Source: Pyrodictium abyssi
Lineage (GTDB): Archaea > Thermoproteota > Thermoprotei_A > Sulfolobales > Pyrodictiaceae
Length of the DNA: 32,000 nucleotides
Assembly (NCBI RefSeq): GCF_036323395.1
Contig: NZ_AP028907.1
Coordinates: forward strand, 750,001-782,000
Reading direction: 5' to 3'
The notes below the pieces were generated by a model. The model did not search any database and was not told where the DNA came from. It worked only from the letters and a program-made list of their open reading frames with translations. Made by a program: the position numbers and the translations under genes. Shown piece after piece: positions 2,335-24,133 of this stretch; the first letter of the stretch is position 1; the number at the start of each line of letters is the position of its first letter.

Positions 2335-3351
2335 TCACTGCTCCTCTAACAGGAGGCTTCGAGGCGCTACGTTCTCCTCGAGCCAGCGGGCGAATCGGTG
2401 GTACTCCATTTTGACCAGGTCCTCTAGGCTGATGTAGTTCTCCTCGGTCGTCTTTGTCTTCACGGCGCTGGGGATCTGGATGAGCTCGGCGCCTGGGTCG
2501 TGGCCGCCTACGTGGGCCGCGGCCTGGGGTCCCAGCATCCTCGCTATATGGTGCAGAGAGAACTTCCGGATGTACTTCGGCGCGGGCGCTCCCTTGCCTG
2601 CCGCGTGTTTTGCTAGCTTGTCCCGGCGCGGCGGCCTGTAGCCCTGCTCCACGGCCTTGTTTACCGCCTCGTAGAGCCACCCCGGCATGTAGAAGCCGTA
2701 GACATGTTTATGGCTCTGCCTCTTGCTCTTCGACTGTATGCACCATCTGCGGAACAGCTCGTAGTCGGGCTCCGGGAGGGGGTCGCTTCCCCCGCCCTGT
2801 TCCTCGAGGAACCGCAGATAGTTCCTAAGCGCCAGGACGTGCCACTTATTCAGCTTCATGGTGTATAGGTCCTCTCTCCGAAGCGGCCAGCGGAACTTCC
2901 GGAGATACGATACGTACGTGCCGCAGGTCCTCTCCGGGTTCTTCTCCGGCCAGCCCGGGGGAGCCACTATGCGCAGACAGCCGCCGGCTATAGGCTCGGT
3001 TCGCACTGCTACGCTCCCCCAGTCCCCCAGCAGCCGCAGCACATGCTCCGGCCGGGCAGCCGTGTACAAGAGCACGTAGTAGACGAGGCGATAGCGGGGC
3101 CTAAGCCTGGGAAGACTGGTCCGCACCTGCTCCACCGGAGGGACGTAGCGGTCCTCCCCGCTCTCCGGCACACGCAACGCCTCCATCCTCCTCCACGCCT
3201 CGAGGCTTCCTCCCCAGGCCGCGGCCTGGGGCAGGGACTCGAGGACCACCGGGATCGCTGTACCGTCCTCGAGCACTATCGCGTACCTGCCGTCGGCGAG
3301 CTGGATGAGTCTGCCTAGTTTGGGCTTAGTCTCCAATATGAGCACCCACAT
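2335..3351 (-). CDS. int: tyrosine-recombinase-like integrase
   Basis: 338-aa track ORF near attL. The C-terminal region KYIRKFSLHHIARMLG...AHVGGHDPG...EENYISL resembles box II (R, H/G-H, catalytic Y) of archaeal integrases. TAARPEHVLRL is a possible box I Arg. Assignment is by motif only. Confidence 0.65.
   Translation of the reverse strand: MWVLILETKPKLGRLIQLADGRYAIVLEDGTAIPVVLESLPQAAAWGGSLEAWRRMEALRVPESGEDRYVPPVEQVRTSLPRLRPRYRLVYYVLLYTAARPEHVLRLLGDWGSVAVRTEPIAGGCLRIVAPPGWPEKNPERTCGTYVSYLRKFRWPLRREDLYTMKLNKWHVLALRNYLRFLEEQGGGSDPLPEPDYELFRRWCIQSKSKRQSHKHVYGFYMPGWLYEAVNKAVEQGYRPPRRDKLAKHAAGKGAPAPKYIRKFSLHHIARMLGPQAAAHVGGHDPGAELIQIPSAVKTKTTEENYISLEDLVKMEYHRFARWLEENVAPRSLLLEEQ
3212..3231. repeat. 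20-bp perfect palindrome CCCCAGGCCGCGGCCTGGGG inside the integrase-like ORF
   Basis: Read directly from the sequence. It encodes PQAAAWG on the minus strand. Confidence 0.9.
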
Positions 3352-3412: not shown

Positions 3413-4411
3413 CTAGCTTGGGGTTAGGCCGAGTTGCTCTAGCATGTCGCGTTTCACGTAGAGGGTTGCATTCTTGACTATGAGCTTGTACTTCTGGTTG
3501 TTCCATGGCCGGATCTCTATGTGTGGGAGAAGGCGCTTGACGAGGTAGAGTGCTGCTCCTAGTTGCTGTTTGAGGGTTGCGTGCTCGGCCGCGGCCTGGG
3601 GCCCTACGTGCAGGCGCTTAACGCGCGCCAGCACCGCCTTCCTCCTTGCTACTTCCTCTTCTATGTCCTCGGGCCGCGTGTAGGCCCGGATCAGCCACTT
3701 ACGCCTCTTCATCAGCGCTACGCCGGTGTACAGGCCGCGCAGTATCTGGCCCGGCTCGTCGCTGGTGACCATCGCCGATATCTCGTCCAGCGCCTGTAGC
3801 GCTGCTGAGCCGAGCATCCGGCCTATGACTCGTAGATCCGAGGGCTCGTCGGGGTAGTCCTTGAATATCTTGAGGACGCTGGTCCTACGCACGCTTATAT
3901 CGACGAGCGTGTACACCTGTGCCGTCCATACTATGTGTGTGTAGCCGGTGAAGCCTAGGTTCTCGAGCCGGTGGCGGACCATGACAAGCGCCTTCGTTTG
4001 CTCGACGTTCTCCTGGCTCATCGCCCGGCGCCCATGCATACCCTCCGCTGCTATGACGTCGTCCATGAAGATGTAGAGGTACCAGTAGTCCTGGAGCGGT
4101 AGATCGGCGACAGCATCCAGGACCACCTGCAGCGGCACCTCCTGCGCGTAGACGTACGCTATCCTATCGTCGTCGACCCCGTGGACGTCAAGCAGATACT
4201 GAACGGCCTCCCCGAGCTTCGCCTCGACGAACGACGTCTTGCCGAAACCCATTGGAGCTATAACCAGCGTCGAGCGGAGGAGCTTCGGCACCCTCCTCAC
4301 AGTCTCCGGCTTCGGTGCCACGTAGCGAAGGAACCGCCGCGTATCCCTCCCCGTCTCCTCGCGGACCTCGACACGAGGGATCTCGACGCCCGTGCTCAGC
4401 ACCGTATACAC
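3413..4411 (-). CDS. P-loop NTPase
   Basis: Walker A is APMGFGKTS and Walker B-like is LYIFMDDV, in a 332-aa track ORF. The subfamily cannot be resolved by eye. Confidence 0.7.
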   Translation of the reverse strand: MYTVLSTGVEIPRVEVREETGRDTRRFLRYVAPKPETVRRVPKLLRSTLVIAPMGFGKTSFVEAKLGEAVQYLLDVHGVDDDRIAYVYAQEVPLQVVLDAVADLPLQDYWYLYIFMDDVIAAEGMHGRRAMSQENVEQTKALVMVRHRLENLGFTGYTHIVWTAQVYTLVDISVRRTSVLKIFKDYPDEPSDLRVIGRMLGSAALQALDEISAMVTSDEPGQILRGLYTGVALMKRRKWLIRAYTRPEDIEEEVARRKAVLARVKRLHVGPQAAAEHATLKQQLGAALYLVKRLLPHIEIRPWNNQKYKLIVKNATLYVKRDMLEQLGLTPS

Positions 4412-4412
4412 C

Positions 4413-4784
4413 TCACTCTATAGAGATCGCTGATACCCTGACCAGGAGCCCCTCGAGGTACAATGCCTTGACGATCTGCTCTAGGGCCTGGTTCGCGTCG
4501 TTCCAGGCCGCGGCCAGGATCCCCTTCTCGTTCCCGCCCAGCTTCTCGAACAGCTTCGCTATGGAGTCGCCGAGCGACTCCGGTATAGTCGCCTTCTTTC
4601 CCACCACAGGCCTAGCGAGGTAGTAGAGCTGCCAGATGCAGCCAATGAACGCCTTGAGCCGGTCCCGGGCGGGCATCTTCGGATCTACTATCCAGAACCG
4701 TGTGCCTAGCTCGGCGCAGCGGTCAAGCTGCCGGTGCAGCACCATCAAGTAGTCCATACTCTCCTTGACTACGGACAGGCTCAT
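4413..4784 (-). CDS. hypothetical protein
   Basis: Track ORF of 123 aa. Its start overlaps the upstream stop by 1 nt (TAATG), which indicates operon coupling. Confidence 0.55.
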   Translation of the reverse strand: MSLSVVKESMDYLMVLHRQLDRCAELGTRFWIVDPKMPARDRLKAFIGCIWQLYYLARPVVGKKATIPESLGDSIAKLFEKLGGNEKGILAAAWNDANQALEQIVKALYLEGLLVRVSAISIE

Positions 4785-6461: not shown

Positions 6462-8300
6462 ATGAATAGGCATAGACTCCTCCCGGCCCTAGGCCTACTA
6501 GCCCTACTCCTCATAGCAGGCATAGCGAGCGCGGAGCAGGAGATGCTGCGCGCCGACCTCGACAAGACGCTCTTCTTCTGGACGCAGAAGGACTACGTGA
6601 GGTTCTGTCGGGATAGAAGCGGTAACCCCAGCTACACAGACAAGGCAATATTGTTCGTGGACGATGAGCTGCCTGCTAGCAGGATAGCTAGCATTCAGCT
6701 GGACCTGCAGAACTACGTGCAGCGTTACGTGAAGGTGGACTTCGACCAGTACGCGGGGAACGAGTATCTCGTCATCCAGTCATCGTCGTACGACCTGGAT
6801 TGGGCTGACAAGTACAGCGGCATACCGCTGCTGGTCCACATAGTGACTGAGGACGGGGAGACGATCCGTGTGCCAGCGTTCATGGGGATGCCAGAGTTCA
6901 ACACTGCTGGCCACTGGTGGTACGGTTGGCGCGTTGGCGAGATTCAGCTAGTCGTCCACCTCCCCGTCGACCCGAGCAGGATAGCAGCGCTCGTAGTGTA
7001 TCCAGACGACAGGGAGGGCGTGGTAAACTCGAACGACTGTGTGGGCTACTGGCAGCTCATGGTGGGCTTCGCCCCCGAGGACGCCATAGTAAATCCGAAC
7101 GTCAACGTGACCGTGAAGCCAGACATCAAGGTGCAGGGCGATAGCAAGCCTGTGGTCATAACCCAGACCGTGAGAGAGGAGCACATGGCCGGCCGGGAGA
7201 ACCCCGGCGACGGCGACGCGAAGCTGAAGTACGCGCTGGCGGGCGCGGTCGGCGGCGCGATGCTCGTGGGGATAATACTGGTGGCTGTGAACGGCCGCGG
7301 CCGGAAGCACGCCATAGTCTTCCTAGCCCTAGGCGCGGCACTGGCACTGGCCGCCCATGCCCACGCCGCCACGATCGACGCCAGCAACGCCCAGGACCTC
7401 CAGCACCTCATAGTCTACTCCAACGCCACGATAACTATCAGCGCTAACGAGACCGGGATCGTAGTCAGCAATCAGGACAACGCTACCGCGCTGGTGGTCC
7501 TCAACCCGCTGTTCGGCTACGTGCTGCGGGGCCTGCACGGCGCGTACCCCGTGCTGGTGAACACCACGGACTACAGCGTGGTGCTCGTGATAGCGAACGA
7601 GACGAGCCTCGACGCCGTGGGGATGCGTAGGGGCGACGGGGCTGCGCTGGGCCTGCTGGTGCCGGCGAACAGCAGCGCTGTGGTCGAGAGCATAGACTAC
7701 GATGCGGATAGCAGCGGCGTGCCCGTCGGCGTCGAGGGGCTTAGCAGCATCAGCCCGCCGCCGGACTACAAGCTGGCCGGGGACAGGTCGGGTTCAGACA
7801 CAGAGCACTGGACGTGGACGATGCCGGTAAGCGGCACGCTATGGCTCGCGTTCAACCCCGGCGAGGGCAGGAAGAGCGACGGCAGCACCGACTACCCGTT
7901 CTTCGGCGAGATACGCTTCGTGGACCCCAACGGCCGCGGCCTGGGCTACATGTTCTGCCACGTCCACGAGTGCCAGCCGGGCAAGTACCAGATACTAACG
8001 TACGTCGCCGGCCCCGGCGAGGTAAAGTTCGACGTGTTCCGCGACAGCAGCGTAACAACCGTGACAATGGGCTGGAGGCTAGTCTGGGCCTACAAGGCCG
8101 ACTCGGGCGACAGCAATAGCCCGCCCGTAGATGGAGGCGGCGACGTGCAGCCGGCGCCGAATCCTAACCCGACGCAGACGGCGCAGCCGGACACCCCCAA
8201 GGCTGAGATCAACATGGACAGCGAGACGACCAAGTACGCGGTAGCCGGCGCCGCGGCCATAGTCTTCCTAGCCATAGTGGTGCTGGCTACGAGGAGGTGA
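6462..8300 (+). CDS. two-module surface protein or polyprotein (SP, ectodomain A, anchor-GRGRK, SP-like, sequon-rich ectodomain B, anchor-RR)
   Basis: 612-aa track ORF. The N-terminal signal peptide is LLPALGLLALLLIAGIASA. The internal junction is KLKYALAGAVGGAMLVGIILVAVNGRGRK-HAIVFLALGAALALAAHAHA-ATID. The C-terminus is TPKAEINMDSETTKYAVAGAAAIVFLAIVVLATRR. The second half has many N-X-S/T sequons. Confidence 0.75.
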   Translation: MNRHRLLPALGLLALLLIAGIASAEQEMLRADLDKTLFFWTQKDYVRFCRDRSGNPSYTDKAILFVDDELPASRIASIQLDLQNYVQRYVKVDFDQYAGNEYLVIQSSSYDLDWADKYSGIPLLVHIVTEDGETIRVPAFMGMPEFNTAGHWWYGWRVGEIQLVVHLPVDPSRIAALVVYPDDREGVVNSNDCVGYWQLMVGFAPEDAIVNPNVNVTVKPDIKVQGDSKPVVITQTVREEHMAGRENPGDGDAKLKYALAGAVGGAMLVGIILVAVNGRGRKHAIVFLALGAALALAAHAHAATIDASNAQDLQHLIVYSNATITISANETGIVVSNQDNATALVVLNPLFGYVLRGLHGAYPVLVNTTDYSVVLVIANETSLDAVGMRRGDGAALGLLVPANSSAVVESIDYDADSSGVPVGVEGLSSISPPPDYKLAGDRSGSDTEHWTWTMPVSGTLWLAFNPGEGRKSDGSTDYPFFGEIRFVDPNGRGLGYMFCHVHECQPGKYQILTYVAGPGEVKFDVFRDSSVTTVTMGWRLVWAYKADSGDSNSPPVDGGGDVQPAPNPNPTQTAQPDTPKAEINMDSETTKYAVAGAAAIVFLAIVVLATRR

Positions 8301-8307
8301 TAGTGCT

Positions 8308-8499
8308 ATGGGCGTGAGGGCTAGGCTGGGCGGGCTCGCCTCGGCGGCCGGGCCGCTGGCTCTGGTGCTCTTCATAGCGGGCCTAGGCGCGGTAGTGGCT
8401 GTCGCCATGAAGCCGGATCTGGCGAAGTACGCGGCATACGGAGTCGGCGTCATAGGAGCATTCGCCGGCTTCGTGCTCGCCGCAACCCGCCGGCGCTAG
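8308..8499 (+). CDS. small membrane protein, ectodomain-less minimal module
   Basis: 63 aa. An SP-like helix (PLALVLFIAGLGAVVAVA) is followed directly by AKYAAYGVGVIGAFAGFVLAATRRR. AGGAGGTGA lies 8 nt upstream of the ATG. Confidence 0.5.
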   Translation: MGVRARLGGLASAAGPLALVLFIAGLGAVVAVAMKPDLAKYAAYGVGVIGAFAGFVLAATRRR

Positions 8500-8547
8500 C
8501 CCGCACCCACTCTTTTTCCCGTCGACAGCCACTCCTGGGGTGAGACT

Positions 8548-10323
8548 ATGCGCTTCCCGGTGCTAGCCGTCGCTGTGTTCCTGGCACTATCGCTGGCCAC
8601 GGCAGCCCAGGCAGCCGAGATAGAGCCCTTGAAGGTGCTGTACGACAACAAGCTGGACAGGAGCGTAGTTGTCGTGGTCTACGCTAACCGGCAGTACGGC
8701 ACCGGCTGGTGGGTCAACGAGCACTACATCGTAACCGCCGCCCACGTAACAGACTACCAGGCCAATGTCCCGGTAACCATCCTCCACGGCGACTACGAGA
8801 GCAGCGGCTACGTGGTGGGGGTGGACAAGGAGCACGACATCGAGGTCATATACGTGGAGCGGCCAATGGCCAATGCAACAATCTTGCCATTGTGTGAACG
8901 TGTGGCCAAGGGCGAAGAAGTGCTGGTCATAGGGTACCCGTTCGAGCTGCTGCAGATACTAGGCGATCTGAGGGCTGCGAGCGCAAACCCGCGCGCGGCG
9001 TACGGCACGATAGCGTGGACCGGCACAGGCGAGAAGTGGTACCTCAGCGAGGTCCAGGCGACGACGGACGAGGGGAACTCTGGCGGGCCGGCAGTAGATC
9101 TCGACACGCACTGCAGCCTAGGGGCCATCACCTTCGCATTGAAGGGCGAGGCCGGCGTCCTATACTATATAACTAATGTATACAGCGTCCGCCGGCTCCT
9201 CGACAAGTACAACGTAACGTACACGGTCAAGCAGAACATGAAGCTGACGGACAGCGACGACTGGCCGTGGAACCAGCACGCCGACTCCAGCAGCCCTAGC
9301 ATCGACAGCGAGAAGCAGCTCTACGCGCTCGGCGGAGCAGCGCTGGCCGCCTCGATAATGGCGGTGCTGCTCGTAGCCTCCGGCCGCGGCCGGAGGGCGG
9401 CAGTTGTCGTCCTGGCCCTAGGCGTGGTTGCGCTAGCGCTGCCGGCCGCGCACGCTGATAGCGGCAATGTGAGCATAGCGGTGATTCCGCTCGCTGTGCG
9501 CGACTCCGGCTACGACCTCGTCCAGTGCCAGCACGTCAAGGTGTCTGTGAAGGCGAAGTACTATGATGGGCCGTTGTTCGGCTTGTTCCAGCCCGCCGAG
9601 GTCCACATAGGCCCCCTCACAGCGAGGATCGACACAGGGAACGCGTACCTGGGGCTCGCCGACCGGGTCTACGCGGTCGTCGAGCTGGACGGCGAGAAGG
9701 TGGCAGAGAAAGAGCTGACAAAGATATGGATAGGTGGGGGCAGCTACGACTTCGGCCTGGTCGTGGACTGCAGCTGGAGCGACGAGCTAAGCTGCAGCGT
9801 CTCGACGGATAAGGGTCTGGTCTGGAGCGGCACCATAAAGCCCAGCCCCTACGGCTACTACGACATATTCTGGGACTACGCAGACGAGCCCACCATAGAC
9901 AGCGAATGGATATGCGACACTGCTACCACCACAGTCACAGGTATAGAGCCAGCACCCGACCGGCCCACCAACCAAGACAACTACAAGAACCAGAACAACG
10001 AGGACGGTCTAGAGAAGTACATGCTCTACGGTGTTGGCGGGCTAGCAGCACTGAGCCTCCTCCTGGCCGCGGCCCGGGGCGGCAGCGTTGTCGTGGTAAG
10101 CGGTGGTGGCAAGAGAGGCATGGTGCAGCTCCTAGGCGTCATAGTGTTGGCCGCGGCCCTGGGAGGAGCCGCACTGGCGTGGAAGCTGCGAGGGCTCTTC
10201 GACGGCGGGGGCTCGGGCGACTCTAGCCTGTTGTTGGCTGGGATCGGGATCCTCGTGGCCATTGTTTTCCTCATGCTCCTGCTCGGTAGGAGATCACAGG
10301 TCATAGTAGTTGAGGGGAGGTGA
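8548..10323 (+). CDS. membrane-anchored trypsin-like (chymotrypsin-fold) serine protease fused to further anchored modules
   Basis: 591-aa track ORF with signal peptide VLAVAVFLALSLATAAQA. The catalytic-triad motifs are in canonical order: YIVTAAHV (His), HDIEVIYV (Asp), GNSGGP (Ser). The internal junction is EKQLYALGGAALAASIMAVLLVASGRGRR-AAVVVLALGVVALALPAAHA-DSGN. A third anchor is LEKYMLYGVGGLAALSLLLAAARGG. Confidence 0.8.
   Translation: MRFPVLAVAVFLALSLATAAQAAEIEPLKVLYDNKLDRSVVVVVYANRQYGTGWWVNEHYIVTAAHVTDYQANVPVTILHGDYESSGYVVGVDKEHDIEVIYVERPMANATILPLCERVAKGEEVLVIGYPFELLQILGDLRAASANPRAAYGTIAWTGTGEKWYLSEVQATTDEGNSGGPAVDLDTHCSLGAITFALKGEAGVLYYITNVYSVRRLLDKYNVTYTVKQNMKLTDSDDWPWNQHADSSSPSIDSEKQLYALGGAALAASIMAVLLVASGRGRRAAVVVLALGVVALALPAAHADSGNVSIAVIPLAVRDSGYDLVQCQHVKVSVKAKYYDGPLFGLFQPAEVHIGPLTARIDTGNAYLGLADRVYAVVELDGEKVAEKELTKIWIGGGSYDFGLVVDCSWSDELSCSVSTDKGLVWSGTIKPSPYGYYDIFWDYADEPTIDSEWICDTATTTVTGIEPAPDRPTNQDNYKNQNNEDGLEKYMLYGVGGLAALSLLLAAARGGSVVVVSGGGKRGMVQLLGVIVLAAALGGAALAWKLRGLFDGGGSGDSSLLLAGIGILVAIVFLMLLLGRRSQVIVVEGR
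9377..9396. repeat. 20-bp perfect palindrome CCTCCGGCCGCGGCCGGAGG at the module junction of the protease ORF
   Basis: Read directly from the sequence. It encodes SGRGRR. Confidence 0.9.
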
Positions 10324-10327
10324 GAGC

Positions 10328-10942
10328 ATGGAGCCCATGAGCCTGCTCGCGTACACGGGGAGCTTCGCGGCCCTGGCCGGGGGCATAGCGATAGTGTACT
10401 CCGTGCTCCGGGACCGGGGCTCCAGGCGGGAGCAGATGCTGCGCGAGCACCTGGCAGCCCTAGCCGGCAAGCTGGAGAAGTGCGAGCTGGAGAAGGAGAA
10501 GCAGGCGAGCGTCATAGCGGACCTGGAGCTTGAGAGGAAGAAGCTAGAGGCGCGGCTAGAGGAGGAGAGGAGGAGGCTACAGGCGGAGAAGGAGAAGGCT
10601 CTAGCTGAGCTGGAGCGAAGGCTGCGCCTAGAGTTCGCCAAGGAGCGCTCGAGGCTCCTCGAGGACTGCGAGAAGAGAGTAGAGCAGGTTGCGAGAGTGT
10701 CGAGATCAGCCGCTACACTCTTCGAGGCGGTGAAGAGCGGGAAGATAAGACTAGTCGCGGCAGAGAAGACGTGTGAGGGCATAATCATAGAGCCGGAGAG
10801 GATACTATGCAAGAGGAGCGACGGAACCCTGGAGGCAATATGGCCCGAAGAGTACAGCGTGGGAGAAGCGCTGGTGGTCGAGCCCTCCAGCCAGGCCTCG
10901 GGCCGCGGCCAGGCTAGGAAGTCCAAGGAGCAGGAGCAGTAA
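10328..10942 (+). CDS. N-terminally anchored coiled-coil protein
   Basis: Start set at the ATG following the GGTGAGAGCATG junction (the track TTG at 10310 is less likely). The TM helix is LLAYTGSFAALAGGIAIVYSVL. E/K/R/L heptad-like sequence follows (LEKCELEKEKQASVIADLELERKKLEARLEEERRRLQAEKEK). Confidence 0.6.
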   Translation: MEPMSLLAYTGSFAALAGGIAIVYSVLRDRGSRREQMLREHLAALAGKLEKCELEKEKQASVIADLELERKKLEARLEEERRRLQAEKEKALAELERRLRLEFAKERSRLLEDCEKRVEQVARVSRSAATLFEAVKSGKIRLVAAEKTCEGIIIEPERILCKRSDGTLEAIWPEEYSVGEALVVEPSSQASGRGQARKSKEQEQ

Positions 10943-10953
10943 GGGGAGGAGCG

Positions 10954-12153
10954 GTGGGCAGCGTCTACGACCTTTTCTTCATAGTCGAGGGCTTCTTTGT
11001 CGGCTTTATGGCGTTCTACTTCCTGGCGCGCCGGAACCCGGCGTATCTGCAGACGCTGCGGGATCATCTACGGTTCTTCCTTAGCCCCTATGGGCCGGAG
11101 ACGATGGTCGTTATCAAGCAGCTGGACAACACTGTGCGGATAGTCTACGACCCCAGGGTCTACAAGAGCAGGAACGGCGTGATAATAGAGGCTGATGACG
11201 CGCTGTTCTCCGCGAGGATGGATCCCCGGGACGGGATGCTGGTGGGGCTGGCCGACGCCCGGGGCCCTGTGGGGGTGCCGAGCCCGTATGGCTATGTGTG
11301 GAGGCTGCTGGTGGGCTGGACGCTGATCTGGGTCTTCGGCTGGATAGCGCTGGTAAACACGTTCATAGACTCGCTGCTGAAGGGCCAGACCCCGGGGCCG
11401 GTGGACTGGCTGGCGCTGCTGGCCTTCATCCTGCTGGTGTACACGCTGCTCGGCCAGGTGGTCCCGAAGCTCTACACGCCGACGATACGGCTGGCCGGCT
11501 ACGTAGAGAACGGCTACGACCCACCGTACCGTAAGCTCGCATCCAGCTGCAGCCCCTGGGACCCGACAAGCGTAGACGAGTGCGCGGAGGAGTACGGCGG
11601 CCAGATGATAGTAAAGGTTCCAGAGAGCGCGGTCGAGTACCTCGACGAGCTCAAGAAGGAGCACGGCACGTACACGCTGGCCGCGGCGATACTAGCGAGG
11701 CTCGACGAGGGCGTAAGACTGCGCAAGACCGTCTCGGAGCTAAAGAGGAGAATGTACGAGCAGACCGAGGCCGCGAAGAGCCTAGTAAGGATAGAGGGAT
11801 GGAGGTACTTCACCAGGCTCACGCTGCCCAAGGTGCTGTTCTGGCTGCTGCTGGTGGGGATCGGCTTCGGTCTAGGATACCTGTTCGGCAGCGACTGGGC
11901 GCTGAGCAGCCAGCCGCCGGCGTGGTACATGGCGGCTAACTCTACCGCCCAGGCCGCGGCCCAGCAGCAGGTCTACGTGCCCGTGAGCCCGGCGCAGCCC
12001 CCGACGCCGCCCACTGCCGGCCAGCCGCCTGTGCAGCCGGCCCAGCCACCCCCGCCGCCGTCCACGGTGACGGTCACGATCACTCCCGCTAAGCCCCCGA
12101 GCCCGCCGGCCACCGGCAACACGACGGTACAGCCAGCCGCGGCCCAGGGGTGA
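10954..12153 (+). CDS. polytopic membrane protein with Pro-rich C-terminal tail
   Basis: 399-aa track ORF with a GTG start after GGGGAGGAG. It has several hydrophobic helices. The tail is PAQPPTPPTAGQPPVQPAQPPPPPSTVTVTITPAKPPSPP. Confidence 0.6.
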   Translation: MGSVYDLFFIVEGFFVGFMAFYFLARRNPAYLQTLRDHLRFFLSPYGPETMVVIKQLDNTVRIVYDPRVYKSRNGVIIEADDALFSARMDPRDGMLVGLADARGPVGVPSPYGYVWRLLVGWTLIWVFGWIALVNTFIDSLLKGQTPGPVDWLALLAFILLVYTLLGQVVPKLYTPTIRLAGYVENGYDPPYRKLASSCSPWDPTSVDECAEEYGGQMIVKVPESAVEYLDELKKEHGTYTLAAAILARLDEGVRLRKTVSELKRRMYEQTEAAKSLVRIEGWRYFTRLTLPKVLFWLLLVGIGFGLGYLFGSDWALSSQPPAWYMAANSTAQAAAQQQVYVPVSPAQPPTPPTAGQPPVQPAQPPPPPSTVTVTITPAKPPSPPATGNTTVQPAAAQG

Positions 12154-12157
12154 GAGC

Positions 12158-12400
12158 ATGAGCCTAGCGGGCCTGAAGAGGATGGCGATAGTGGGCGGCG
12201 TCATACTGCTGCTCTTCGTGCACATGTTAATGGTGGTGGAGAACGCGATGATACTAGCGCTGCTGGACAGGCACGACTGGCTGGCGCTCGTAGAGATGGT
12301 GGCCCTGGCCCCGACGATAGCCATCTACATCGTGCTGCTCTACGAGGTGCTGCGAGACAAGGAGGAGAGGCGGCCGAAACTAACCCGTGTAGAATCCTAG
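12158..12400 (+). CDS. small membrane protein
   Basis: 80 aa with two hydrophobic helices. The start is in a GGTGAGAGCATG junction. Confidence 0.5.
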   Translation: MSLAGLKRMAIVGGVILLLFVHMLMVVENAMILALLDRHDWLALVEMVALAPTIAIYIVLLYEVLRDKEERRPKLTRVES

Positions 12401-12463
12401 ACGCCTATACCCTGCGCACATTTCTTGCATAAACACTTTCCGAAAGTAAACAAACGGGGTGGG

Positions 12464-12778
12464 ATGGGCTTGAGAGAGTACTGGAGGAAGGTGGAGGGGA
12501 TAAGCCCCATACAGCTTCTCCTAATAACAGTTATAGGCGGTCTAGTAGGCCTAGCCCTAGGCATTATTGTCGGTACGCTCCTGTTCGCACCGGAGGAGCA
12601 GTCTCAGCCGCACCCCCTAGCGTCGGATGCTGTGCCACCGAGCCCGGAGCTGCTAGCCACCGTGACTCCCGCTAAGATGCCGCCGCCCATTCCAAGGTAC
12701 ATCTGTCTCGGCTTCGGCAACGGGACGACGGTCTGCTACGTGGAGGGCCCCGGGATAATCCCCAACATTACGGGGTGA
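12464..12778 (+). CDS. small membrane protein (single TM, Pro-rich ectodomain)
   Basis: ATG at 12464 is preceded by GGGGTGGG; the track alternative start at 12425 is less likely. The TM helix is LLLITVIGGLVGLALGIIVGTLLF. TVTPAKMPPP echoes the TITPAKPPSPP of the previous large ORF. Confidence 0.5.
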   Translation: MGLREYWRKVEGISPIQLLLITVIGGLVGLALGIIVGTLLFAPEEQSQPHPLASDAVPPSPELLATVTPAKMPPPIPRYICLGFGNGTTVCYVEGPGIIPNITG

Positions 12779-12782
12779 GAGC

Positions 12783-12992
12783 ATGGGCAGGGACCACGCT
12801 GCGCTGGCTGGCCTAGGGGCAGCCATGGTAAGCGCTGCTACTATTATACAGATGTACATAGACTACCAGCAGTCGAACGCCGCCGGCCTGGAGAACGTGA
12901 GCCTCAAGCTGAAGATCCTGGTAACAGTCGCCTTCCTTCTCACCTTCACGGGCTTTGTCCTGGGCCTATCGGCGTCGGCGAGGAGGCGGTGA
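12783..12992 (+). CDS. small membrane protein
   Basis: 69 aa with two hydrophobic helices and a C-terminal RRR. The start is in a GGTGAGAGCATG junction. Confidence 0.5.
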   Translation: MGRDHAALAGLGAAMVSAATIIQMYIDYQQSNAAGLENVSLKLKILVTVAFLLTFTGFVLGLSASARRR

Positions 12993-12995
12993 GGG

Positions 12996-13439
12996 GTGGC
13001 GTGCAGGGTGCTTATAGATACTAGCCTGGCATGGGTGATGGCCAGGGGTCCCTCGTACCTGGCTGAAGCTCTTAGGGCGTTCTTTAGGAAGCTAGGGTCC
13101 AACGGGTGTAGCATACTCTACAGTGAGGCTGTCTATATAGACCTGCGCCACGAGAGGAGGGAGAAGAGAGAACAGATACTGTCGCAGCTCCGCTCCCTCG
13201 CCCAGCAGGCCCCAGTGGACATGAAGCTGTTGCTGATGCGGGTAGGCCGCTACGGGGCCACTGTGCGGAAGCTAGGCCTAGCCGACGTCCTAATAGCCCT
13301 CGCAGCGAGGGAGGTGGGCGCGGTGCTCGCAACCGGGGACTGGGGACAGGCCAGGTTCTACATCAACATAGCAGGTGCCGACCGGCCGCCAGTAATATAC
13401 ATCCCCGTGAAGCTGATAACAGAGGCGGAGAAGAGGTGA
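12996..13439 (+). CDS. PIN-domain protein (VapC-like nuclease)
   Basis: Acidic PIN positions are in order: VLIDTS, YSEAVYIDL, LADVLIALAAREVGAVLATGD. GTG start 3 nt after the upstream TGA. Confidence 0.55.
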   Translation: MACRVLIDTSLAWVMARGPSYLAEALRAFFRKLGSNGCSILYSEAVYIDLRHERREKREQILSQLRSLAQQAPVDMKLLLMRVGRYGATVRKLGLADVLIALAAREVGAVLATGDWGQARFYINIAGADRPPVIYIPVKLITEAEKR

Positions 13440-16083: not shown

Positions 16084-16557
16084 CTAGGCCTCGATCTCTA
16101 GCTCTATCGCCTGGCCGCTGCTGGTTGGCTGGTGTACGGGGAGGAGGCCTCGGCGCTCGAGGAACTCTATGACTGCTTTGCGTATCACATCGCTGCGGTG
16201 CGGCCAGCCCAGGAGGACTCTGGCGTCGTCGATGCGCTGCAGCAGCCCCTCGCCGAGCTTCACCGTCACCACGCGGAGCGGGCCGCGGCCCGGAGCCGGG
16301 ACGGGCTCCCTCACGCCCACCGGGGGGCGGCGGAACACCGGCAGCGGCTCCTCGTCGACGAGGAGCCGGTAGACCCGGGTCCCGTCCCGCTCCAGCACGG
16401 CGAGCCCCCGCTCCGCCATCTCGGCCAGGAGCTGGCCGGCCCTCCAAGCCGGCAGCCCCATCAGCCGCGCCAACAGCCGCGCGTTGACGTACCGCAGCCC
16501 GAGACGCGCAAGCAGCCGCGCCAGCTCCTCCAGGCCCAGGCACACCCGGCTAGCCAT
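16084..16557 (-). CDS. transcription regulator, winged-helix N-domain plus ribbon-helix-helix C-domain
   Basis: The wHTH-like part is LARLMGLPAWRAGQLLAEMAERGLAVLERDGTRVYRL. The RHH (CopG/Arc-like) part is RVVTVKLGEGLLQRIDDARVLLGWPHRSDVIRKAVIEFLERRG. Confidence 0.6.
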   Translation of the reverse strand: MASRVCLGLEELARLLARLGLRYVNARLLARLMGLPAWRAGQLLAEMAERGLAVLERDGTRVYRLLVDEEPLPVFRRPPVGVREPVPAPGRGPLRVVTVKLGEGLLQRIDDARVLLGWPHRSDVIRKAVIEFLERRGLLPVHQPTSSGQAIELEIEA

Positions 16558-16837
16558 GCACCGCCACCTCCGGCCGCGGCCTGGAGAGTAGTATCGGCCG
16601 CTGTGCCTCCAGCTCCCGCTTGAGCAGCTCGATCCTCGCCGCGACCAGCTCCCGGTCAGCGACGGTGTCCACGTCGTCGAGCTGCGGCCTGCCTAGGCGG
16701 TGGCCGCAGCGGGGGCATAGGCCGCCGAACCACGACGCTATCTCTGAGGGCGTCGGCAGCCCGTAGCTGCTCTGCCCCATCCTCCAGTGCACGTACAGCA
16801 CATAGCCGCACTCCCTGCAGCGGTAGACGACTACCAT
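16550..16837 (-). CDS. zinc-ribbon protein
   Basis: Start trimmed to MVVVYRCRECGYVLYV...LCPRCGHRL (CxxC...CxxC). ATG at 16837 overlaps the upstream stop (ATGGTAG). The longer track N-terminus is an R/G/A-rich alternative frame. Confidence 0.5.
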   Translation of the reverse strand: MVVVYRCRECGYVLYVHWRMGQSSYGLPTPSEIASWFGGLCPRCGHRLGRPQLDDVDTVADRELVAARIELLKRELEAQRPILLSRPRPEVAVHG

Positions 16838-17058
16838 GCGCAGACCCCCTCCTCGGTCTCCCTTAGCACACCCTCGACGATCAGCTCGAAGACGAGCTTG
16901 CGGAGCCGCTTCTCGCCGACAGGCATCCCCATCCTCCGCAGCTCCCTGTGCAGCTCCCTCCGGGTCATGCAGCGGCGCTGCAGGATGCCGGTTATGGCCT
17001 TGATCAGCTCCTGGTCGCTGGGCGTGGGCACCAGCACCAGCAGAGGCTCGGCCTCCAC
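16831..17058 (-). CDS. small winged-helix DNA-binding protein
   Basis: 75 aa: ELIKAITGILQRRCMTRRELHRELRRMGMPVGEKRLRKLVFELIVEGVLRE. Confidence 0.5.
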   Translation of the reverse strand: MEAEPLLVLVPTPSDQELIKAITGILQRRCMTRRELHRELRRMGMPVGEKRLRKLVFELIVEGVLRETEEGVCAW

Positions 17059-17069
17059 TACGTCCCACC

Positions 17070-17339
17070 TCAGCTAGGTCCCACCCAGTCGCTCGGCAGG
17101 CGGACGACGCGCACGCCGTTCCCGTTGCCTATGCTGCGCCACTGCCGGAGAAGCCCGGCAGCCATGACCGACTCGCAGCGCCTCGTGCCGAACAGCTCCT
17201 CCTGCACCAGCCTCTTGACAGCCTCCCTCACAGCGTCGCTCCTATGCTTGAACACCCCGCGCCTCACAAGCTCGTCGAGAGCCTCAGCAAGCATCCCCGG
17301 GATCTTGACGACCACCAGCGTACCGCTCACCACGGTCAC
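17070..17339 (-). CDS. ribbon-helix-helix (CopG-like) protein (start uncertain; GTG candidates at 17339, 17333 or 17330)
   Basis: TLVVVKIPGMLAEALDELVRRGVFKHRSDAVREAVKRLVQEEL shows the strand-helix-helix pattern. The N-terminal half of the 176-aa track ORF overlaps the 17336-17590 gene and looks spurious. Confidence 0.55.
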   Translation of the reverse strand: MTVVSGTLVVVKIPGMLAEALDELVRRGVFKHRSDAVREAVKRLVQEELFGTRRCESVMAAGLLRQWRSIGNGNGVRVVRLPSDWVGPS

Positions 17340-17590
17340 CCCCTGCCTAGGTACTCGAGGATGCTCTTCGTGGACGGTGTGATGGCCCTGGGCTTGTACC
17401 GGTAGCACTTGCCCGTGTAGTAGGTCACCGGCCTCCCGTAGGCCGTGCACCATCCTAGGACGCTGTGGCCGACGCGCTCGCCACGCTCTTGGCGCCACTG
17501 GAGCCACTTCTCCGCCTTGATGATCTGCTCCTCGGAGAGCTGGCTCGCCGGGACGAAGTATTCGCACTTCCTGCAGTCCGCCAGCACCAT
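17336..17590 (-). CDS. small Cys-rich (zinc-finger-like) protein
   Basis: 84 aa with CRKCEYF...GWCTAYG...GKCYRYK. Confidence 0.5.
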   Translation of the reverse strand: MVLADCRKCEYFVPASQLSEEQIIKAEKWLQWRQERGERVGHSVLGWCTAYGRPVTYYTGKCYRYKPRAITPSTKSILEYLGRG

Positions 17591-17601
17591 GGCGGCTCAC
17601 C

Positions 17602-17889
17602 CTAGTCGTAGTAGATGACGCCCTCCTCCCGCGCCATGATGCTGTAGACTAGGCGCTCGCTGGCGCCCTCCGGCATGTGCAGGATCTTCTTGCTCCTGCC
17701 CCGGCGGCCGGCGACTACGCGGACCACGGCGTACTTGGCCTTGTTTACGCAGATCTCCCTCGGCTGCTCCTCGCCCTGTATGGTATCCTTCACGATGCCC
17801 GCCGACACGTCCACGATGTAGTATACCGTGCCGCCGCAGCCGCGCCTACCCACACACTCGTTCTCAAAGCAGAAGTACCTATCACCCAT
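17602..17889 (-). CDS. hypothetical protein
   Basis: 95-aa track ORF with balanced composition, in the same operon. Confidence 0.45.
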   Translation of the reverse strand: MGDRYFCFENECVGRRGCGGTVYYIVDVSAGIVKDTIQGEEQPREICVNKAKYAVVRVVAGRRGRSKKILHMPEGASERLVYSIMAREEGVIYYD

Positions 17890-17905
17890 GGCTGCGCCGC
17901 CCCCT

Positions 17906-18178
17906 CTAGCCTAGGACTAGCTGCCGGGCCGGCTCCTCGTGGCGCATGTGCGGCTCCAGGGCCTCGACGCGGCAGTCCTTGGCGCCGCGGGACTGCAGGA
18001 AGTTCTCGAACGCCGCCGCCACCTCCCGGCAGCTCCGCTCCACCCGGGGCAGCCAGCCCCAGACCACGTCCTCGAGGGCGAAGGCCTCGGCGAGGCTCCG
18101 GACCACGGCAGAGCGCAGGCAGCAGCCGCTGACCCGGAGCCGGCAGCCGGCGACCTCGACCACGATCATGGCTGCCAC
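17906..18178 (-). CDS. hypothetical protein
   Basis: 90-aa track ORF. The competing overlapping ORFs are R/P/G-rich. Confidence 0.4.
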   Translation of the reverse strand: MAAMIVVEVAGCRLRVSGCCLRSAVVRSLAEAFALEDVVWGWLPRVERSCREVAAAFENFLQSRGAKDCRVEALEPHMRHEEPARQLVLG

Positions 18179-18348
18179 CTCTTGATCTCATCTACGATTT
18201 CGCGCCCAATCCTCTCCATTAGCTCCGTTAGCTTCTCGACCGCGACCGTCTCGTCCTCCATGACCCAGACGTCGTCCCTCAGCACCACTACATGCGCTTC
18301 GCCTTCGTAGATCTCGATCTCGATTTCATACTTCACCAAGTGAACCAC
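18166..18348 (-). CDS. hypothetical acidic protein
   Basis: 60-aa track ORF: MVHLVKYEIEIEIYEGEAHVVVLRDD... Confidence 0.4.
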   Translation of the reverse strand: MVHLVKYEIEIEIYEGEAHVVVLRDDVWVMEDETVAVEKLTELMERIGREIVDEIKRWQP

Positions 18349-18350
18349 CC

Positions 18351-18899
18351 CTAGGCCGTCGCCTTGGCGGTCTTTGGTGGGAGTGCGCTGGGCAGCTCGG
18401 GGAACCAGTCCTTCATGCGCTGCTCCGCCGCCTTGGCCGCCTCCATTAGCAGCTCCATCGCCTTCTTGCCGAAGTCGCCCAGCTCTATGCCGGCCACATG
18501 CTCCTCGAGCATGTCGCGGACCTCGTCTAGGGCTAGGAGCAGCTCGGGGTCGCCGACCACCGTGAGGTGCCTGCGGATCTCCGCCAGCAGGGCCGCGGCC
18601 GGCGCCAGGCCTAGCCTCTGGTCGCCCCCGTTCACCCAGAGCAGCGTCTCCAGCCGCAGCACGACCCGCTCGAGAGCGTACCTGGCTGCCAGGAGGGCCT
18701 TACACCACCTTCGTAGCTCGGCTATCTCCGCCGCGATGCCCGCCATACGGATGCTGTCGCGCTCCTCGAACGCCTCCATGTAGCGGTCGAACAGCACCTC
18801 ATCCCGATGCTGGATCCTTTCCACTATGCTGTCTATCCTGTTGATCTGGACGCGTAGCCTGTAGATAGCCATGGCTAGACTACGACCAGCCGGCACCAC
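18351..18899 (-). CDS. ESCRT-III (CdvB/Snf7)-like protein (alternative ATG start at 18872)
   Basis: The layout matches what I recall of archaeal CdvB proteins. There is an N-terminal helical hairpin: YRLRVQINRIDSIVERIQHRDEVLFDRYMEAFEERDSIRMAGIAAEIAELRRWCKALLAARYALERVVLRLETL. This is followed by ...DPELLLALDEVRDMLEE... and LLMEAAKAAEQRMKDWFPELP. This is a motif-level call made without an HMM search. Confidence 0.6.
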   Translation of the reverse strand: MVPAGRSLAMAIYRLRVQINRIDSIVERIQHRDEVLFDRYMEAFEERDSIRMAGIAAEIAELRRWCKALLAARYALERVVLRLETLLWVNGGDQRLGLAPAAALLAEIRRHLTVVGDPELLLALDEVRDMLEEHVAGIELGDFGKKAMELLMEAAKAAEQRMKDWFPELPSALPPKTAKATA

Positions 18900-18901
18900 G
18901 C

Positions 18902-19150
18902 CTAGGCCACCTCCTCCTCCTTGCCGTCGTCACCCTCGTCGTCCTCGGAGACCCGCACCGCGAGCACGATGTCGTAGACGCCGCTGCCCAGCCTCACGCC
19001 GCGCCACGCCATACTGGTCTCGGCCGCGTCCAGCCTCAGAAGCAGGGCCACCAGAGCCTCCGCGACCTCCCGCACCGTAGCATCCACGCCATCCCGCCTA
19101 CCGGACTCCTCGGGCCGCGGCCACACCTTCACGAAGTCGCGAGCCTCCAT
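18902..19150 (-). CDS. hypothetical protein with acidic tail
   Basis: 82-aa track ORF ending SEDDEGDDGKEEEVA. Confidence 0.45.
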   Translation of the reverse strand: MEARDFVKVWPRPEESGRRDGVDATVREVAEALVALLLRLDAAETSMAWRGVRLGSGVYDIVLAVRVSEDDEGDDGKEEEVA

Positions 19151-19181: not shown

Positions 19182-19601
19182 TCACCTCTCCCTGGTCATC
19201 CTCCTGGTCATTGCGCGTAGCTTCTTGCGAAGCTCGCGGATCTCCCGCAGGTTCTGCTCTATCCGCGCGTCTGCAACCACTATCCTAAGGTGGCGGGCGC
19301 ACTCGCGGAGCCTCCCGGTGAACATGCGGGGTACGCCGTCCTCCTCGAGCCTGCCGGCTAGCCGCTCCAGCCTAGCCGCCAGCTCCTCGTACTCCGCCGG
19401 ACGGGCAGACTCCACCTCGCGGCGCAGCCTGCGCAGAACCCCCGCATACTCGGGGCCCATGTCGCGCTCAAGCCTAGCCAGAGTATCCAGGACGTACACG
19501 ACACGCCAACCCCGAGCCACACCAACCACCCCCGACACGCCTGGGCTTCCCTCGGGGCCCCCGGGGCCGGGGCCCCAGGGACGCGTTGTTTCTAGAAACA
19601 T
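19182..19601 (-). CDS. coiled-coil protein, first gene of the leftward operon (start uncertain)
   Basis: 139-aa track ORF. The annotated ATG lies inside the operator palindrome, so a downstream GTG start or a leaderless mRNA are both possible. The C-terminal part is helical and charged (LRRLRREVESARPAEYEELAARLERLAGRLEE...). Confidence 0.45.
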   Translation of the reverse strand: MFLETTRPWGPGPGGPEGSPGVSGVVGVARGWRVVYVLDTLARLERDMGPEYAGVLRRLRREVESARPAEYEELAARLERLAGRLEEDGVPRMFTGRLRECARHLRIVVADARIEQNLREIRELRKKLRAMTRRMTRER

Positions 19602-24007: not shown

Positions 24008-24043
24008 ACCGTATCACCGGTGCGCGGTGGGTGGGGCGGGTTG

Positions 24044-24077
24044 TGGCGCCGGGGGCGGGATTTGAACCCGCGCGGCC
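24044..24077. repeat. attR core (direct repeat)
   Basis: Identical to 1400-1433. Confidence 0.85.
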
Positions 24078-24133
24078 CGGCTGGGGCCACCGGCTCTCCA
24101 GGCCGGCCCCTTGGTCCGCTCGGGCACCCCGGC
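24044..24133 (-). tRNA. tRNA-Ser (anticodon GGA), class II, CCA encoded
   Basis: The reverse complement reads GCCGGGGTGCCCGAGCGGACCAAGGGGCCGGCCTGGAGAGCCGGTGGCCCCAGCCGGGCCGCGCGGGTTCAAATCCCGCCCCCGGCGCCA. The acceptor stem is GCCGGGG/CCCCGGC. The anticodon stem is CCGGC/GCCGG with loop CUGGAGA. The long variable arm is GGCCC-CAGCC-GGGCC. The T arm is GCGGG-TTCAAAT-CCCGC and the discriminator is G. Confidence 0.9.

Follow-up and report, generated by a model that had tools for sequence, protein, structure and literature searches.

What would an integrated virus-like element gain from an ESCRT-III gene, and how could the product act in a host that runs its own Cdv machinery? The question arises from a 32,000-nucleotide stretch of the Pyrodictium abyssi genome (contig NZ_AP028907.1, positions 750,001 to 782,000; hereafter the window), in which an initial annotation made from the sequence had read an open reading frame (ORF) of 173-182 amino acids (aa) at 18351-18899 as a CdvB-like ESCRT-III protein of a mobile element. 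We find the ORF intact and its product to be an ESCRT-III protein of the CdvB1/B2 class, encoded within an insert related to the archaeal virus AGV1. Its most telling feature is the loss of the N-terminal membrane-binding segment, and we discuss below whether such an anchor-less subunit could serve the element by disturbing host cytokinesis, by promoting budding, or in some other way. The two features on which the gene call depends are:

18351-18899, minus strand: cdvB-like gene, 182 aa, an N-terminally truncated CdvB1/B2-class ESCRT-III encoded by the element
18908-18914, minus strand: putative Shine-Dalgarno-like GGAGGTG, 8 nt 5' of the GTG start, within the 3' end of the upstream gene

An ESCRT-III protein of the CdvB1/B2 class

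The cdvB-like ORF is a real gene. Its codon-position GC (0.71/0.41/0.85) is typical for real genes in 63% GC DNA, and an identical protein has already been deposited under the name 'hypothetical protein' (Pyrodictium abyssi). Two starts are candidates, GTG at 18899 (182 aa) and ATG at 18872 (173 aa), and the GTG is preferred because of the GGAGGTG motif in front of it and the stop codon of the preceding gene 2 nt upstream. A longer N-terminus is excluded by an in-frame stop 11 codons 5' of the GTG. The same stop, along with the different reading frames, rules out both an overlooked N-terminal exon and a frameshift that would join the gene to the upstream ORF, whose protein is moreover unlike CdvB N-termini. 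All the peptide motifs quoted in the initial annotation are present, i.e., ALERVVLRLETL (residues 75-86), DPELLLALDEV (117-127) and LMEAAKAAEQRMKDWFPELP (151-170).

Among the NCBIfam models, CdvB1/B2 (NF041005) gave the best match (110.7 bits, E=6.3e-32), with the query from residue 7 onward covering profile positions 36-206 of 212, and the models for CdvB (66.4 bits) and CdvB3 (24.7 bits, cut-off 170) scored lower. The equivalog cut-off of NF041005 (350 bits) is reached neither by the element protein nor by the CdvB1/B2 of the host (255.9 bits); this cut-off is too strict for Pyrodictiaceae, and the element protein, far under the host copy, is not an equivalog. A phmmer search of the PDB returned CdvB2 of S. 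acidocaldarius (9s97, E=2.9e-25) and CdvB of S. islandicus (9s9j, E=1.5e-13) with end-to-end alignment. In the AlphaFold2 model (29 homologues, pLDDT 84.5) five predicted helices (a1, residues 4-45; a2, 49-88; a3, 94-112; a4, 118-137; a5, 143-165) are followed by a disordered tail, and Foldseek ranked CdvB2 filament subunits on top (E about 3e-7, TM 0.67-0.70), with CdvB, CHMP3 and IST1 next. The profile and structure comparisons that the initial annotation had suggested thus both recover an ESCRT-III protein. The Pfam Snf7 search (PF03357), also suggested there, found no match even at E<=10 and proved uninformative, since genuine CdvB1/B2 proteins likewise score under its cut-off of 27.3 bits (host CdvB1/B2, 20.5 bits; S. 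tokodaii CdvB2, 20.9 bits). A PHROGs search of the protein gave no match.

The class follows from the domain layout. In the scheme of Frohn et al. 2022 (PMC8970359), CdvB consists of Snf7, MIM2 and a winged helix, CdvB1/2 of Snf7 and MIM2, and CdvB3 of Snf7 only, the published MIM2 core being PhiPxPhiP. The disordered tail of the element protein carries FPELP (residues 166-170), which fits this core and aligns with the FPELP/FPSLP of cellular CdvB1/B2. The protein stops 12 residues past the motif, and the model shows no structured domain beyond a5, i.e., no winged helix; of the two C-terminal modules for which the initial annotation had proposed to look, only the MIM2 core is found. Given the Snf7-type core, the FPELP, the lack of a winged helix and the best NCBIfam score, the element protein is a CdvB1/B2-class ESCRT-III and neither CdvB proper nor CdvB3, so that the original assignment stands as regards ESCRT-III homology and has to be corrected as regards the paralogue. 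We file it as a variant of CdvB1/B2 and not as an orthologue, as it lacks the N-terminal amphipathic helices and falls short of the equivalog score. The FPELP motif makes it a candidate for Vps4 binding.

Loss of the N-terminal membrane anchor

The PDB alignment pairs residue 6 of the element protein with residue 35 of CdvB2, which places its start at the equivalent of CdvB2 residue ~30, and residue 3 pairs with residue 38 of the host's own CdvB1/B2. Absent are the ~30-35 N-terminal residues of cellular CdvB1/B2, comprising the helices amph1 and amph2. All 16 cellular CdvB1/B2 that we aligned (Pyrodictiaceae, other Desulfurococcales, Fervidicoccales and Sulfolobales) have the N-terminal 'MARVEDFAKAW...GVIEKIKNTI' segment, and all six short proteins (the element protein and five metagenomic relatives, see below) start at amph3, at the start of a1. 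A hydrophobic-moment scan agrees: the two amphipathic windows of the host protein (residues 1-14 and 21-35) have no counterpart in the element protein. The a4-a5 linker is also about 10 residues shorter than in cellular CdvB1/B2. The LRLET motif is intact here and degraded in some members of the short family.

The helices amph1 and amph2 were named in the 2026 structural study behind 9s97 (PMC12818579), in which their removal from S. acidocaldarius proteins (CdvB2-delta27, CdvB-delta15, CdvB1-delta19) abolished or drastically cut liposome binding, amph3 at the start of a1 being left intact in these deletions. The element protein is in effect a natural delta-29 CdvB2 that keeps amph3, the core and the MIM2 motif.

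A rare family of short CdvB1/B2 variants

A word-index search with the element protein found nothing above 38% identity, and HMMER over 1.84 billion cluster representatives gave 305 matches; no orthologue above 50% identity emerged from the exhaustive cluster-representative search or the word-index search. The nearest full-length relatives are cellular CdvB1/B2 of Pyrodictium and other Pyrodictiaceae (43-50% identity), and the full-length CdvB1/B2 of the host itself (BES82303.1 / WP_420917908.1) is 44% identical. A word-index query with one of the recovered proteins (P0059) retrieved the CdvB1/B2 of P. occultum, P. delaneyi, Hyperthermus, Pyrolobus and Pyrofollis. As cellular orthologues are 60-70% identical within Pyrodictiaceae (about 50% between Pyrodictiaceae and Sulfolobales), the element copy is much more diverged than its phylogenetic neighbourhood predicts.

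Five metagenomic proteins (P0058, P0060, P0067, P0147 and P0374; 152-183 aa) begin at the corresponding position. The resulting short family is rare, with six members among ~15 billion proteins, and diverse, with mutual identities of 33-57%. In a neighbour-joining tree (500 bootstraps, numpy) the element protein groups with these five at 78-85% support, beside the clade of cellular Pyrodictiaceae B1/B2 at a node supported by only 46%. Long-branch or compositional attraction may play a part. When the short family is used as a profile, Pyrodictiaceae CdvB1/B2 proteins come next after the family members themselves. Residues kept in at least five of the six short proteins belong almost without exception to the universally conserved core or, as P167, L169, P170 and S171, to the MIM2 core, and [FL]PxLP is found in every one. 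Such conservation points to purifying selection on the polymerisation and Vps4-binding surfaces, and argues against a decaying fragment.

The short N-terminus is fixed by an abutting small upstream ORF in the window and at the loci of P0060, P0147 and P0374. At the P0060 locus (L001) the short cdvB lies two genes from a 359-aa integrase-like ORF and has a ribbon-helix-helix (RHH) gene downstream, as does the P0147 locus. The integrase-like call combines a reading of the sequence with weak matches that stay under the threshold (Pfam SAM-like, E=0.016; BLASTP against the integrase of the window, E=2e-4). The window integrase weakly matches this ORF (L001 177-1256) in two BLASTP segments in swapped order (E=2e-4 and 9e-3), residues 133-192 of the former pairing with 72-134 of the latter and 49-108 with 135-197, which could reflect domain permutation or chance.

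Other collections yielded no further relatives: tblastn of the protein drew a blank across 50,697 records of phages and archaeal viruses, as did scans of IMG/VR with three alignments (A2, A4 and A5) and the AGV1-like ATPase, and scans of JGI metagenome contigs (A4 and A5). A scan of species-representative genomes also returned nothing, the source gene included, and says nothing on presence in other strains. The most economical history is that a CdvB1/B2 gene was captured from a Pyrodictiaceae-like host, lost its anchor and evolved fast on mobile elements.

An integrated, AGV1-related element

The gene sits well inside a ~22.6-kb insert of mostly ORFan genes, flanked by direct repeats of the 3' part of tRNA-Ser. 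The repeats, the integrase and the AGV1-like genes identify the insert as an integrated, AGV1-related virus-like element; the initial annotation had already assigned the gene to a mobile element. Its main features are:

1398-1458: attL, a partial copy of the tRNA-Ser(GGA) 3' part, exact over 36 bp and then diverged through the anticodon arm
24042-24104: attR, inside the intact tRNA-Ser(GGA) gene
24044-24133, minus strand: tRNA-Ser(GGA), the sole tRNA in the window
2335-3351, minus strand: integrase, a tyrosine recombinase of archaeal viral type adjoining attL (phrog_5127, E=3.9e-16)
3413-4411, minus strand: P-loop ATP-binding protein, 49% identical to AGV1 ORF28_309 (E=5e-62)
4413-4784: small gene, syntenic with AGV1 together with the P-loop gene
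6462-12992, plus strand: block encoding large secreted proteins of 612 aa and, with a trypsin-like domain, 591 aa, then membrane proteins
8548-10323, plus strand: secreted trypsin-like peptidase, 35% identical to AGV1 ORF4_262
12996-13439, plus strand: PIN-domain protein (Pfam E=3.7e-4, just under cut-off)

The att repeat is in direct orientation, exact over 36 bp and imperfect over about 61-63 bp. The Pfam model Phage_integr_3 matched the integrase under its cut-off (E=1e-3). Four genes of the element are AGV1-like (the ATPase, the adjacent small gene, the trypsin-like peptidase and one further ORF), and the first two stand in AGV1 order beside the integrase. AGV1 is temperate and packs a genome of 18.2 kb into spherical virions of 60 nm; its structural protein is among the ORFs with predicted transmembrane motifs, and its authors already noted Pyrodictium homologues of these genes. 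The block at 6462-12992, with its membrane proteins of 210, 399, 80, 117 and 69 aa, is a candidate structural or envelope module. No homologue of the AGV1 major virion protein was detectable in the window, and PHROGs gave no capsid match among the window proteins. The PIN-domain protein may be the toxin of a toxin-antitoxin pair.

To the left, the element is flanked by an ammonium transporter gene running off the window, and to the right by cbf5, cmk, r-protein genes, adk and secY. This right (cbf5) flank is syntenic at the same tRNA in two loci from metagenome-assembled genomes of Pyrodictiaceae (L027 and L064), both lacking DNA of the element; on its other side the tRNA has different neighbours there than in the window, so neither offers a clean empty attB. 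The 3' half of the tRNA (the att core) is conserved across Thermoproteota.

The element is also dense in a palindromic 10-mer, GGCCGCGGCC, with 33 sites inside it (1557-23990) and one in the ~9.3 kb of flanks (30887), against a whole-window expectation of 0.28. The sites lie 38-2019 bp apart in coding and intergenic DNA, and the copy at 18591 falls within the cdvB-like gene, as had been pointed out in the initial annotation. Absent from AGV1 and from the contigs with other short cdvB genes, the 10-mer looks like an element-specific signature, possibly a site of binding, packaging, partition or modification.

The absence of Vps4 and CdvA from the element, claimed from the outset, is borne out. 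Pfam scans of essentially all plausible ORFs of at least 100 aa (some short ORFs were left unscanned) found no MIT, Vps4_C or PRC domain, and neither did PDB searches for a hidden Vps4 or CdvA with the integrase-like ORF, the AGV1-like ATPase and three operon neighbours. The AGV1-like ATPase was rejected as a Vps4, having only a sub-threshold AAA match (E=0.031), no MIT or Vps4_C and no PDB match to Vps4; the 338-aa coiled-coil protein and the 139-aa and 82-aa ORFs described below were rejected as CdvA, with no PRC or CdvA similarity. The host CdvB1/B2 gene likewise stands alone, unlinked to cdvA or vps4, so missing partner genes are normal for this class. What is unusual is the location on a mobile element, not the absence of partners.

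Operon context and a putative repressible promoter

The cdvB-like gene occupies the third place in a minus-strand run of closely spaced genes that extends from ~19601 to ~14758 and contains, in order, a 139-aa coiled-coil ORFan, an 82-aa ORFan, the cdvB-like gene, ORFans of 60, 90, 95, 84 and 75 aa, and a 157-aa protein:

19182-19601, minus strand: coiled-coil ORFan of up to 139 aa, first gene of the operon
18902-19150, minus strand: 82-aa ORFan directly upstream of the cdvB-like gene, with a 2-nt gap
16084-18348, minus strand: downstream same-strand genes, the ORFans of 60, 90, 95, 84 and 75 aa and then the 157-aa protein
16084-16557, minus strand: 157-aa protein, residues 93-139 of which resemble RHH proteins near the short cdvB genes of L001 and L124
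19587-19622: divergent promoter region, two identical palindromic 14-mers TGTTTCTAGAAACA around a TATA-like ATAAATA
Small ORFs upstream of short cdvB genes: window 18902-19150 (minus strand); L001 1609-1884; L125 662-886; L124 1-192

The two copies of TGTTTCTAGAAACA start 22 bp apart in the 43-bp intergenic region that separates the run from a divergent gene for a 338-aa coiled-coil protein, and the 14-mer occurs nowhere else in the window (expected 0.01). They probably form an operator pair for an element repressor that would control both the cdvB-like operon and the 338-aa coiled-coil gene, and the TATA box bracketed by them would make a repressible promoter. The 139-aa ORF may in fact start further downstream, past the operator.

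In four of the five available contexts, the short cdvB is preceded, at a distance of 2-7 nt, by a small ORF of 63 to 91 aa. The upstream ORFs of the four loci share no significant sequence similarity with one another; three of them end in a hydrophobic strand and an acidic tail, and its constant position makes the small upstream ORF a possible partner. Downstream of the short cdvB, RHH (CopG-type) genes are found at L001 2865-3080 and L124 1529-1702, and both resemble residues 93-139 of the 157-aa protein of the window (E=5e-7 and 4e-5). In Sulfolobales and their viruses, cdv genes are under the control of aCcr1-type RHH regulators. The short cdvB of L124 is followed by a 272-aa ORF (705-1523) that, by eye only, resembles tRNA-guanine transglycosylase/DpdA-like DNA-modification enzymes of the sort known from viruses.

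What could an anchor-less subunit do for the element?

With no anchor, no winged helix and no partner genes, and with a full-length paralogue in the host, the protein would act only through host polymers and host Vps4, in line with the initial annotation, which had reasoned from an ESCRT-III homologue without Vps4 or CdvA that it must work via the host Cdv machinery. Alone, it would bind neither membrane nor CdvA. Upon de-repression of the operon, its core would co-polymerise with the full-length CdvB1/B2 of the host and its MIM2 would engage host Vps4. With anchor-less subunits in it, the constriction polymer would hold the membrane less avidly, and competition for Vps4 may come on top. Most likely, the late steps of cytokinesis that depend on CdvB1/B2 would then be blocked or delayed, keeping the cell as an enlarged, undivided factory while the element replicates. 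We tentatively favour this interference with division, through co-assembly with host CdvB1/B2, occupation of Vps4, or both, as the leading possibility without calling it probable. It has a parallel in S. islandicus, where partial ESCRT-III paralogues (delta-wH, delta-MIM2) are dominant-negative and cause division arrest with enlarged, polyploid cells (PMC11796394). The proposed arrest also resembles the one that Sulfolobus viruses impose transcriptionally, and viral RHH homologues of aCcr1 are reported to act on the cell cycle as well (PMC9976892).

The least certain step is the direction of the effect, i.e., inhibition of division or re-targeting to budding, and several points weigh against inhibition. 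N-terminal truncation abolishes membrane binding in vitro and for Sulfolobus proteins, and a dominant-negative effect in vivo is unreported. The functional role proposed for the protein, and for the whole short family, rests on sequence and predicted structure. Within a polymer, the retained amph3 might provide residual membrane affinity, and the surfaces needed for co-polymerisation may have drifted in a protein 44% identical to the host copy; LRLET, as noted, is eroded in some family members. Of the five related loci, four are known from contigs shorter than 3.2 kb, on which no viral hallmark gene is present. Over-expression of full-length CdvB1/B2 in S. islandicus raises vesicle budding and leaves cell size unchanged, so an extra B1/B2-like subunit could promote budding instead of inhibiting division. 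Finally, Sulfolobales CdvB3 is a short cellular paralogue, and a review ties it (as ESCRT-III-3) to bud formation of STSV2 (PMC10791045), which means that shortness need not imply inhibition.

These last points lead to the main alternative, that the protein is a positive scission factor for egress. A membrane or adaptor protein of the element would replace the lost amphipathic helices and recruit the ESCRT-III subunit to bud sites, where it would nucleate host CdvB1/B2 and Vps4 to cut the necks of an enveloped, AGV1-like spherical virion or of DNA-carrying vesicles. The element's relative AGV1 is a spherical, temperate virus with a structural protein among its ORFs with predicted transmembrane motifs, and the small ORF directly upstream of the cdvB-like gene could be the adaptor. 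CdvB1/B2 are the paralogues enriched in Sulfolobus vesicles, their over-expression gives a 2-2.5-fold increase in vesicle output, and CdvA is not needed; bud formation of STSV2 fails in escrt-III-3 deletion mutants (review, PMC10791045). The MIM2 core is the best-conserved motif of the short family, and herpesviruses offer precedents in pUL51 (an ESCRT-III-fold mimic) and pUL71 (MIM2-like VPS4A recruitment). However, the adaptor remains hypothetical, the small upstream ORFs share no significant similarity, the element protein has no added targeting domain, and AGV1 makes virions without any CdvB-like gene. Loss of the anchor in every family member is also harder to explain under egress than under interference with division. 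We regard a role in budding as possible and rather doubtful.

Proviruses commonly carry exclusion genes, and the protein could also act against competing elements. Low expression in the lysogenic state would then impair the ESCRT-dependent assembly or egress of competitors and spare host division. Archaeal viruses have been reported to need host ESCRT for egress, and a subunit with core and MIM2 retained and anchor lost has the features of a decoy. Yet the gene belongs to a long operon behind paired palindromic operators overlapping a TATA-like box, which looks repressed in lysogeny and not constitutive, a dose that blocks a competitor should harm host cytokinesis too, and no direct evidence speaks for superinfection exclusion, which we consider improbable.

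We think it similarly improbable that the gene is a neutral passenger, a captured host CdvB1/B2 fragment in decay whose truncation was an accident of capture. Its very high divergence and long branches, the extreme rarity of the family (the six members in the ~15 billion proteins) and the erosion of LRLET in some members would fit such a fragment. The ORF is intact, though, with a strong coding signature and a Shine-Dalgarno-like motif, the AlphaFold2 model is confident, and six members at 33-57% identity keep the N-terminal boundary, the core residues and PhiPxLPS, which indicates long-term purifying selection.

That the gene is an ordinary host paralogue, an extra lineage-specific CdvB in a variable but non-mobile chromosomal region, would agree with the several dispersed CdvB paralogues of crenarchaea (PMC8970359) and with the stand-alone host CdvB1/B2, but is very improbable for a gene so deep within an att-bounded insert with an integrase, AGV1-like genes and a 10-mer signature of its own (33 copies inside, 1 in the flanks), and for which searches gave nothing closer than short and cellular proteins of 44-50% identity.

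Comparison with known systems

Archaeal viruses are known to exploit or repress host ESCRT/Cdv functions (STSV2 budding, STIV, viral aCcr1 repressors), and the viral proteins that directly touch the ESCRT machinery are largely unidentified, as a 2024 review states for budding. A provirus-encoded ESCRT-III would offer a direct molecular handle on this interface between virus and Cdv. An archaeal virus or mobile element with an ESCRT-III gene of its own did not come up in the full-text literature that we searched, which was not exhaustive; what these searches returned is limited to hijacking of host ESCRT and viral transcriptional regulators in archaea, and to structural mimics in herpesviruses. 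Two recent surveys of archaeal proviruses and viromes make no mention of ESCRT, CdvB or Snf7. On a bolder view, which we hold to be unlikely, this is the first ESCRT-III of an archaeal virus or provirus and the founding member of an anchor-stripped CdvB1/B2 family, used by mobile elements of hyperthermophilic Thermoproteota to seize Cdv/Vps4. In its strongest version, a re-targeting subunit together with an element adaptor would shift Vps4-driven scission from the division ring to the necks of virion or vesicle buds. If true, such re-targeting would put an archaeal example next to herpesvirus pUL51/pUL71 and the late-domain hijacking known from viruses of eukaryotes.

Compared with cellular CdvB1/CdvB2 (BES82303.1; S. 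acidocaldarius CdvB2, 9s97-9s99), the element protein has the same fold, a Snf7 core with FPELP and no winged helix, retains the universally conserved core residues and is likewise unlinked to cdvA and vps4. It differs in the lack of amph1 and amph2, in the shorter a4-a5 linker and in its location on an integrated virus-like element. This location shows that hyperthermophilic hosts and their mobile elements exchange cell-division genes. Closer in architecture are the engineered CdvB2-delta27, CdvB-delta15 and CdvB1-delta19 (PMC12818579), which have nearly the same boundary and an intact amph3 and core; the element protein, likened to them by its sequence, is a natural and evolutionarily conserved variant. 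Almost the exact deletion that in 2026 was shown to stop CdvB paralogues from binding membrane has arisen here naturally and been kept in several lineages. The short family could thus provide a natural test of what an anchor-less subunit does in a composite polymer in vivo, be it capping, weakened membrane coupling or titration of Vps4.

The CdvB3 of Sulfolobales is also a short, minimal paralogue, with an NCBIfam model of 164 positions that is aligned from the start of the core, and is non-essential (as ESCRT-III-3) and linked by a review to virus-induced budding (PMC10791045). CdvB3, however, is chromosomal and consists of Snf7 only, whereas the element protein keeps the MIM2 core and scores far lower with the CdvB3 model than with that for CdvB1/B2 (24.7 vs 110.7 bits). 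The dominant-negative constructs of S. islandicus (delta-wH ESCRT-III and delta-MIM2 ESCRT-III-1/-2; PMC11796394) show that partial subunits with a polymerisation core can poison division; they lack C-terminal modules, whereas the element protein lacks the N-terminal module and has kept its MIM2.

AGV1 is the closest relative of the element, and the ATPase adjoins the integrase in both. The virus, however, has no CdvB-like gene, and the two integrases are not detectably similar. Among eukaryotic viruses, herpesvirus pUL51 and pUL71 of human cytomegalovirus (HCMV) imitate ESCRT-III or its Vps4-binding motif and so exploit host scission. The herpesvirus proteins are structural mimics without recognisable sequence homology that serve envelopment, whereas the archaeal protein is a clear captured homologue. 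Viral copying of ESCRT components, earlier seen only as structural mimicry in herpesviruses, would thereby gain an archaeal case.

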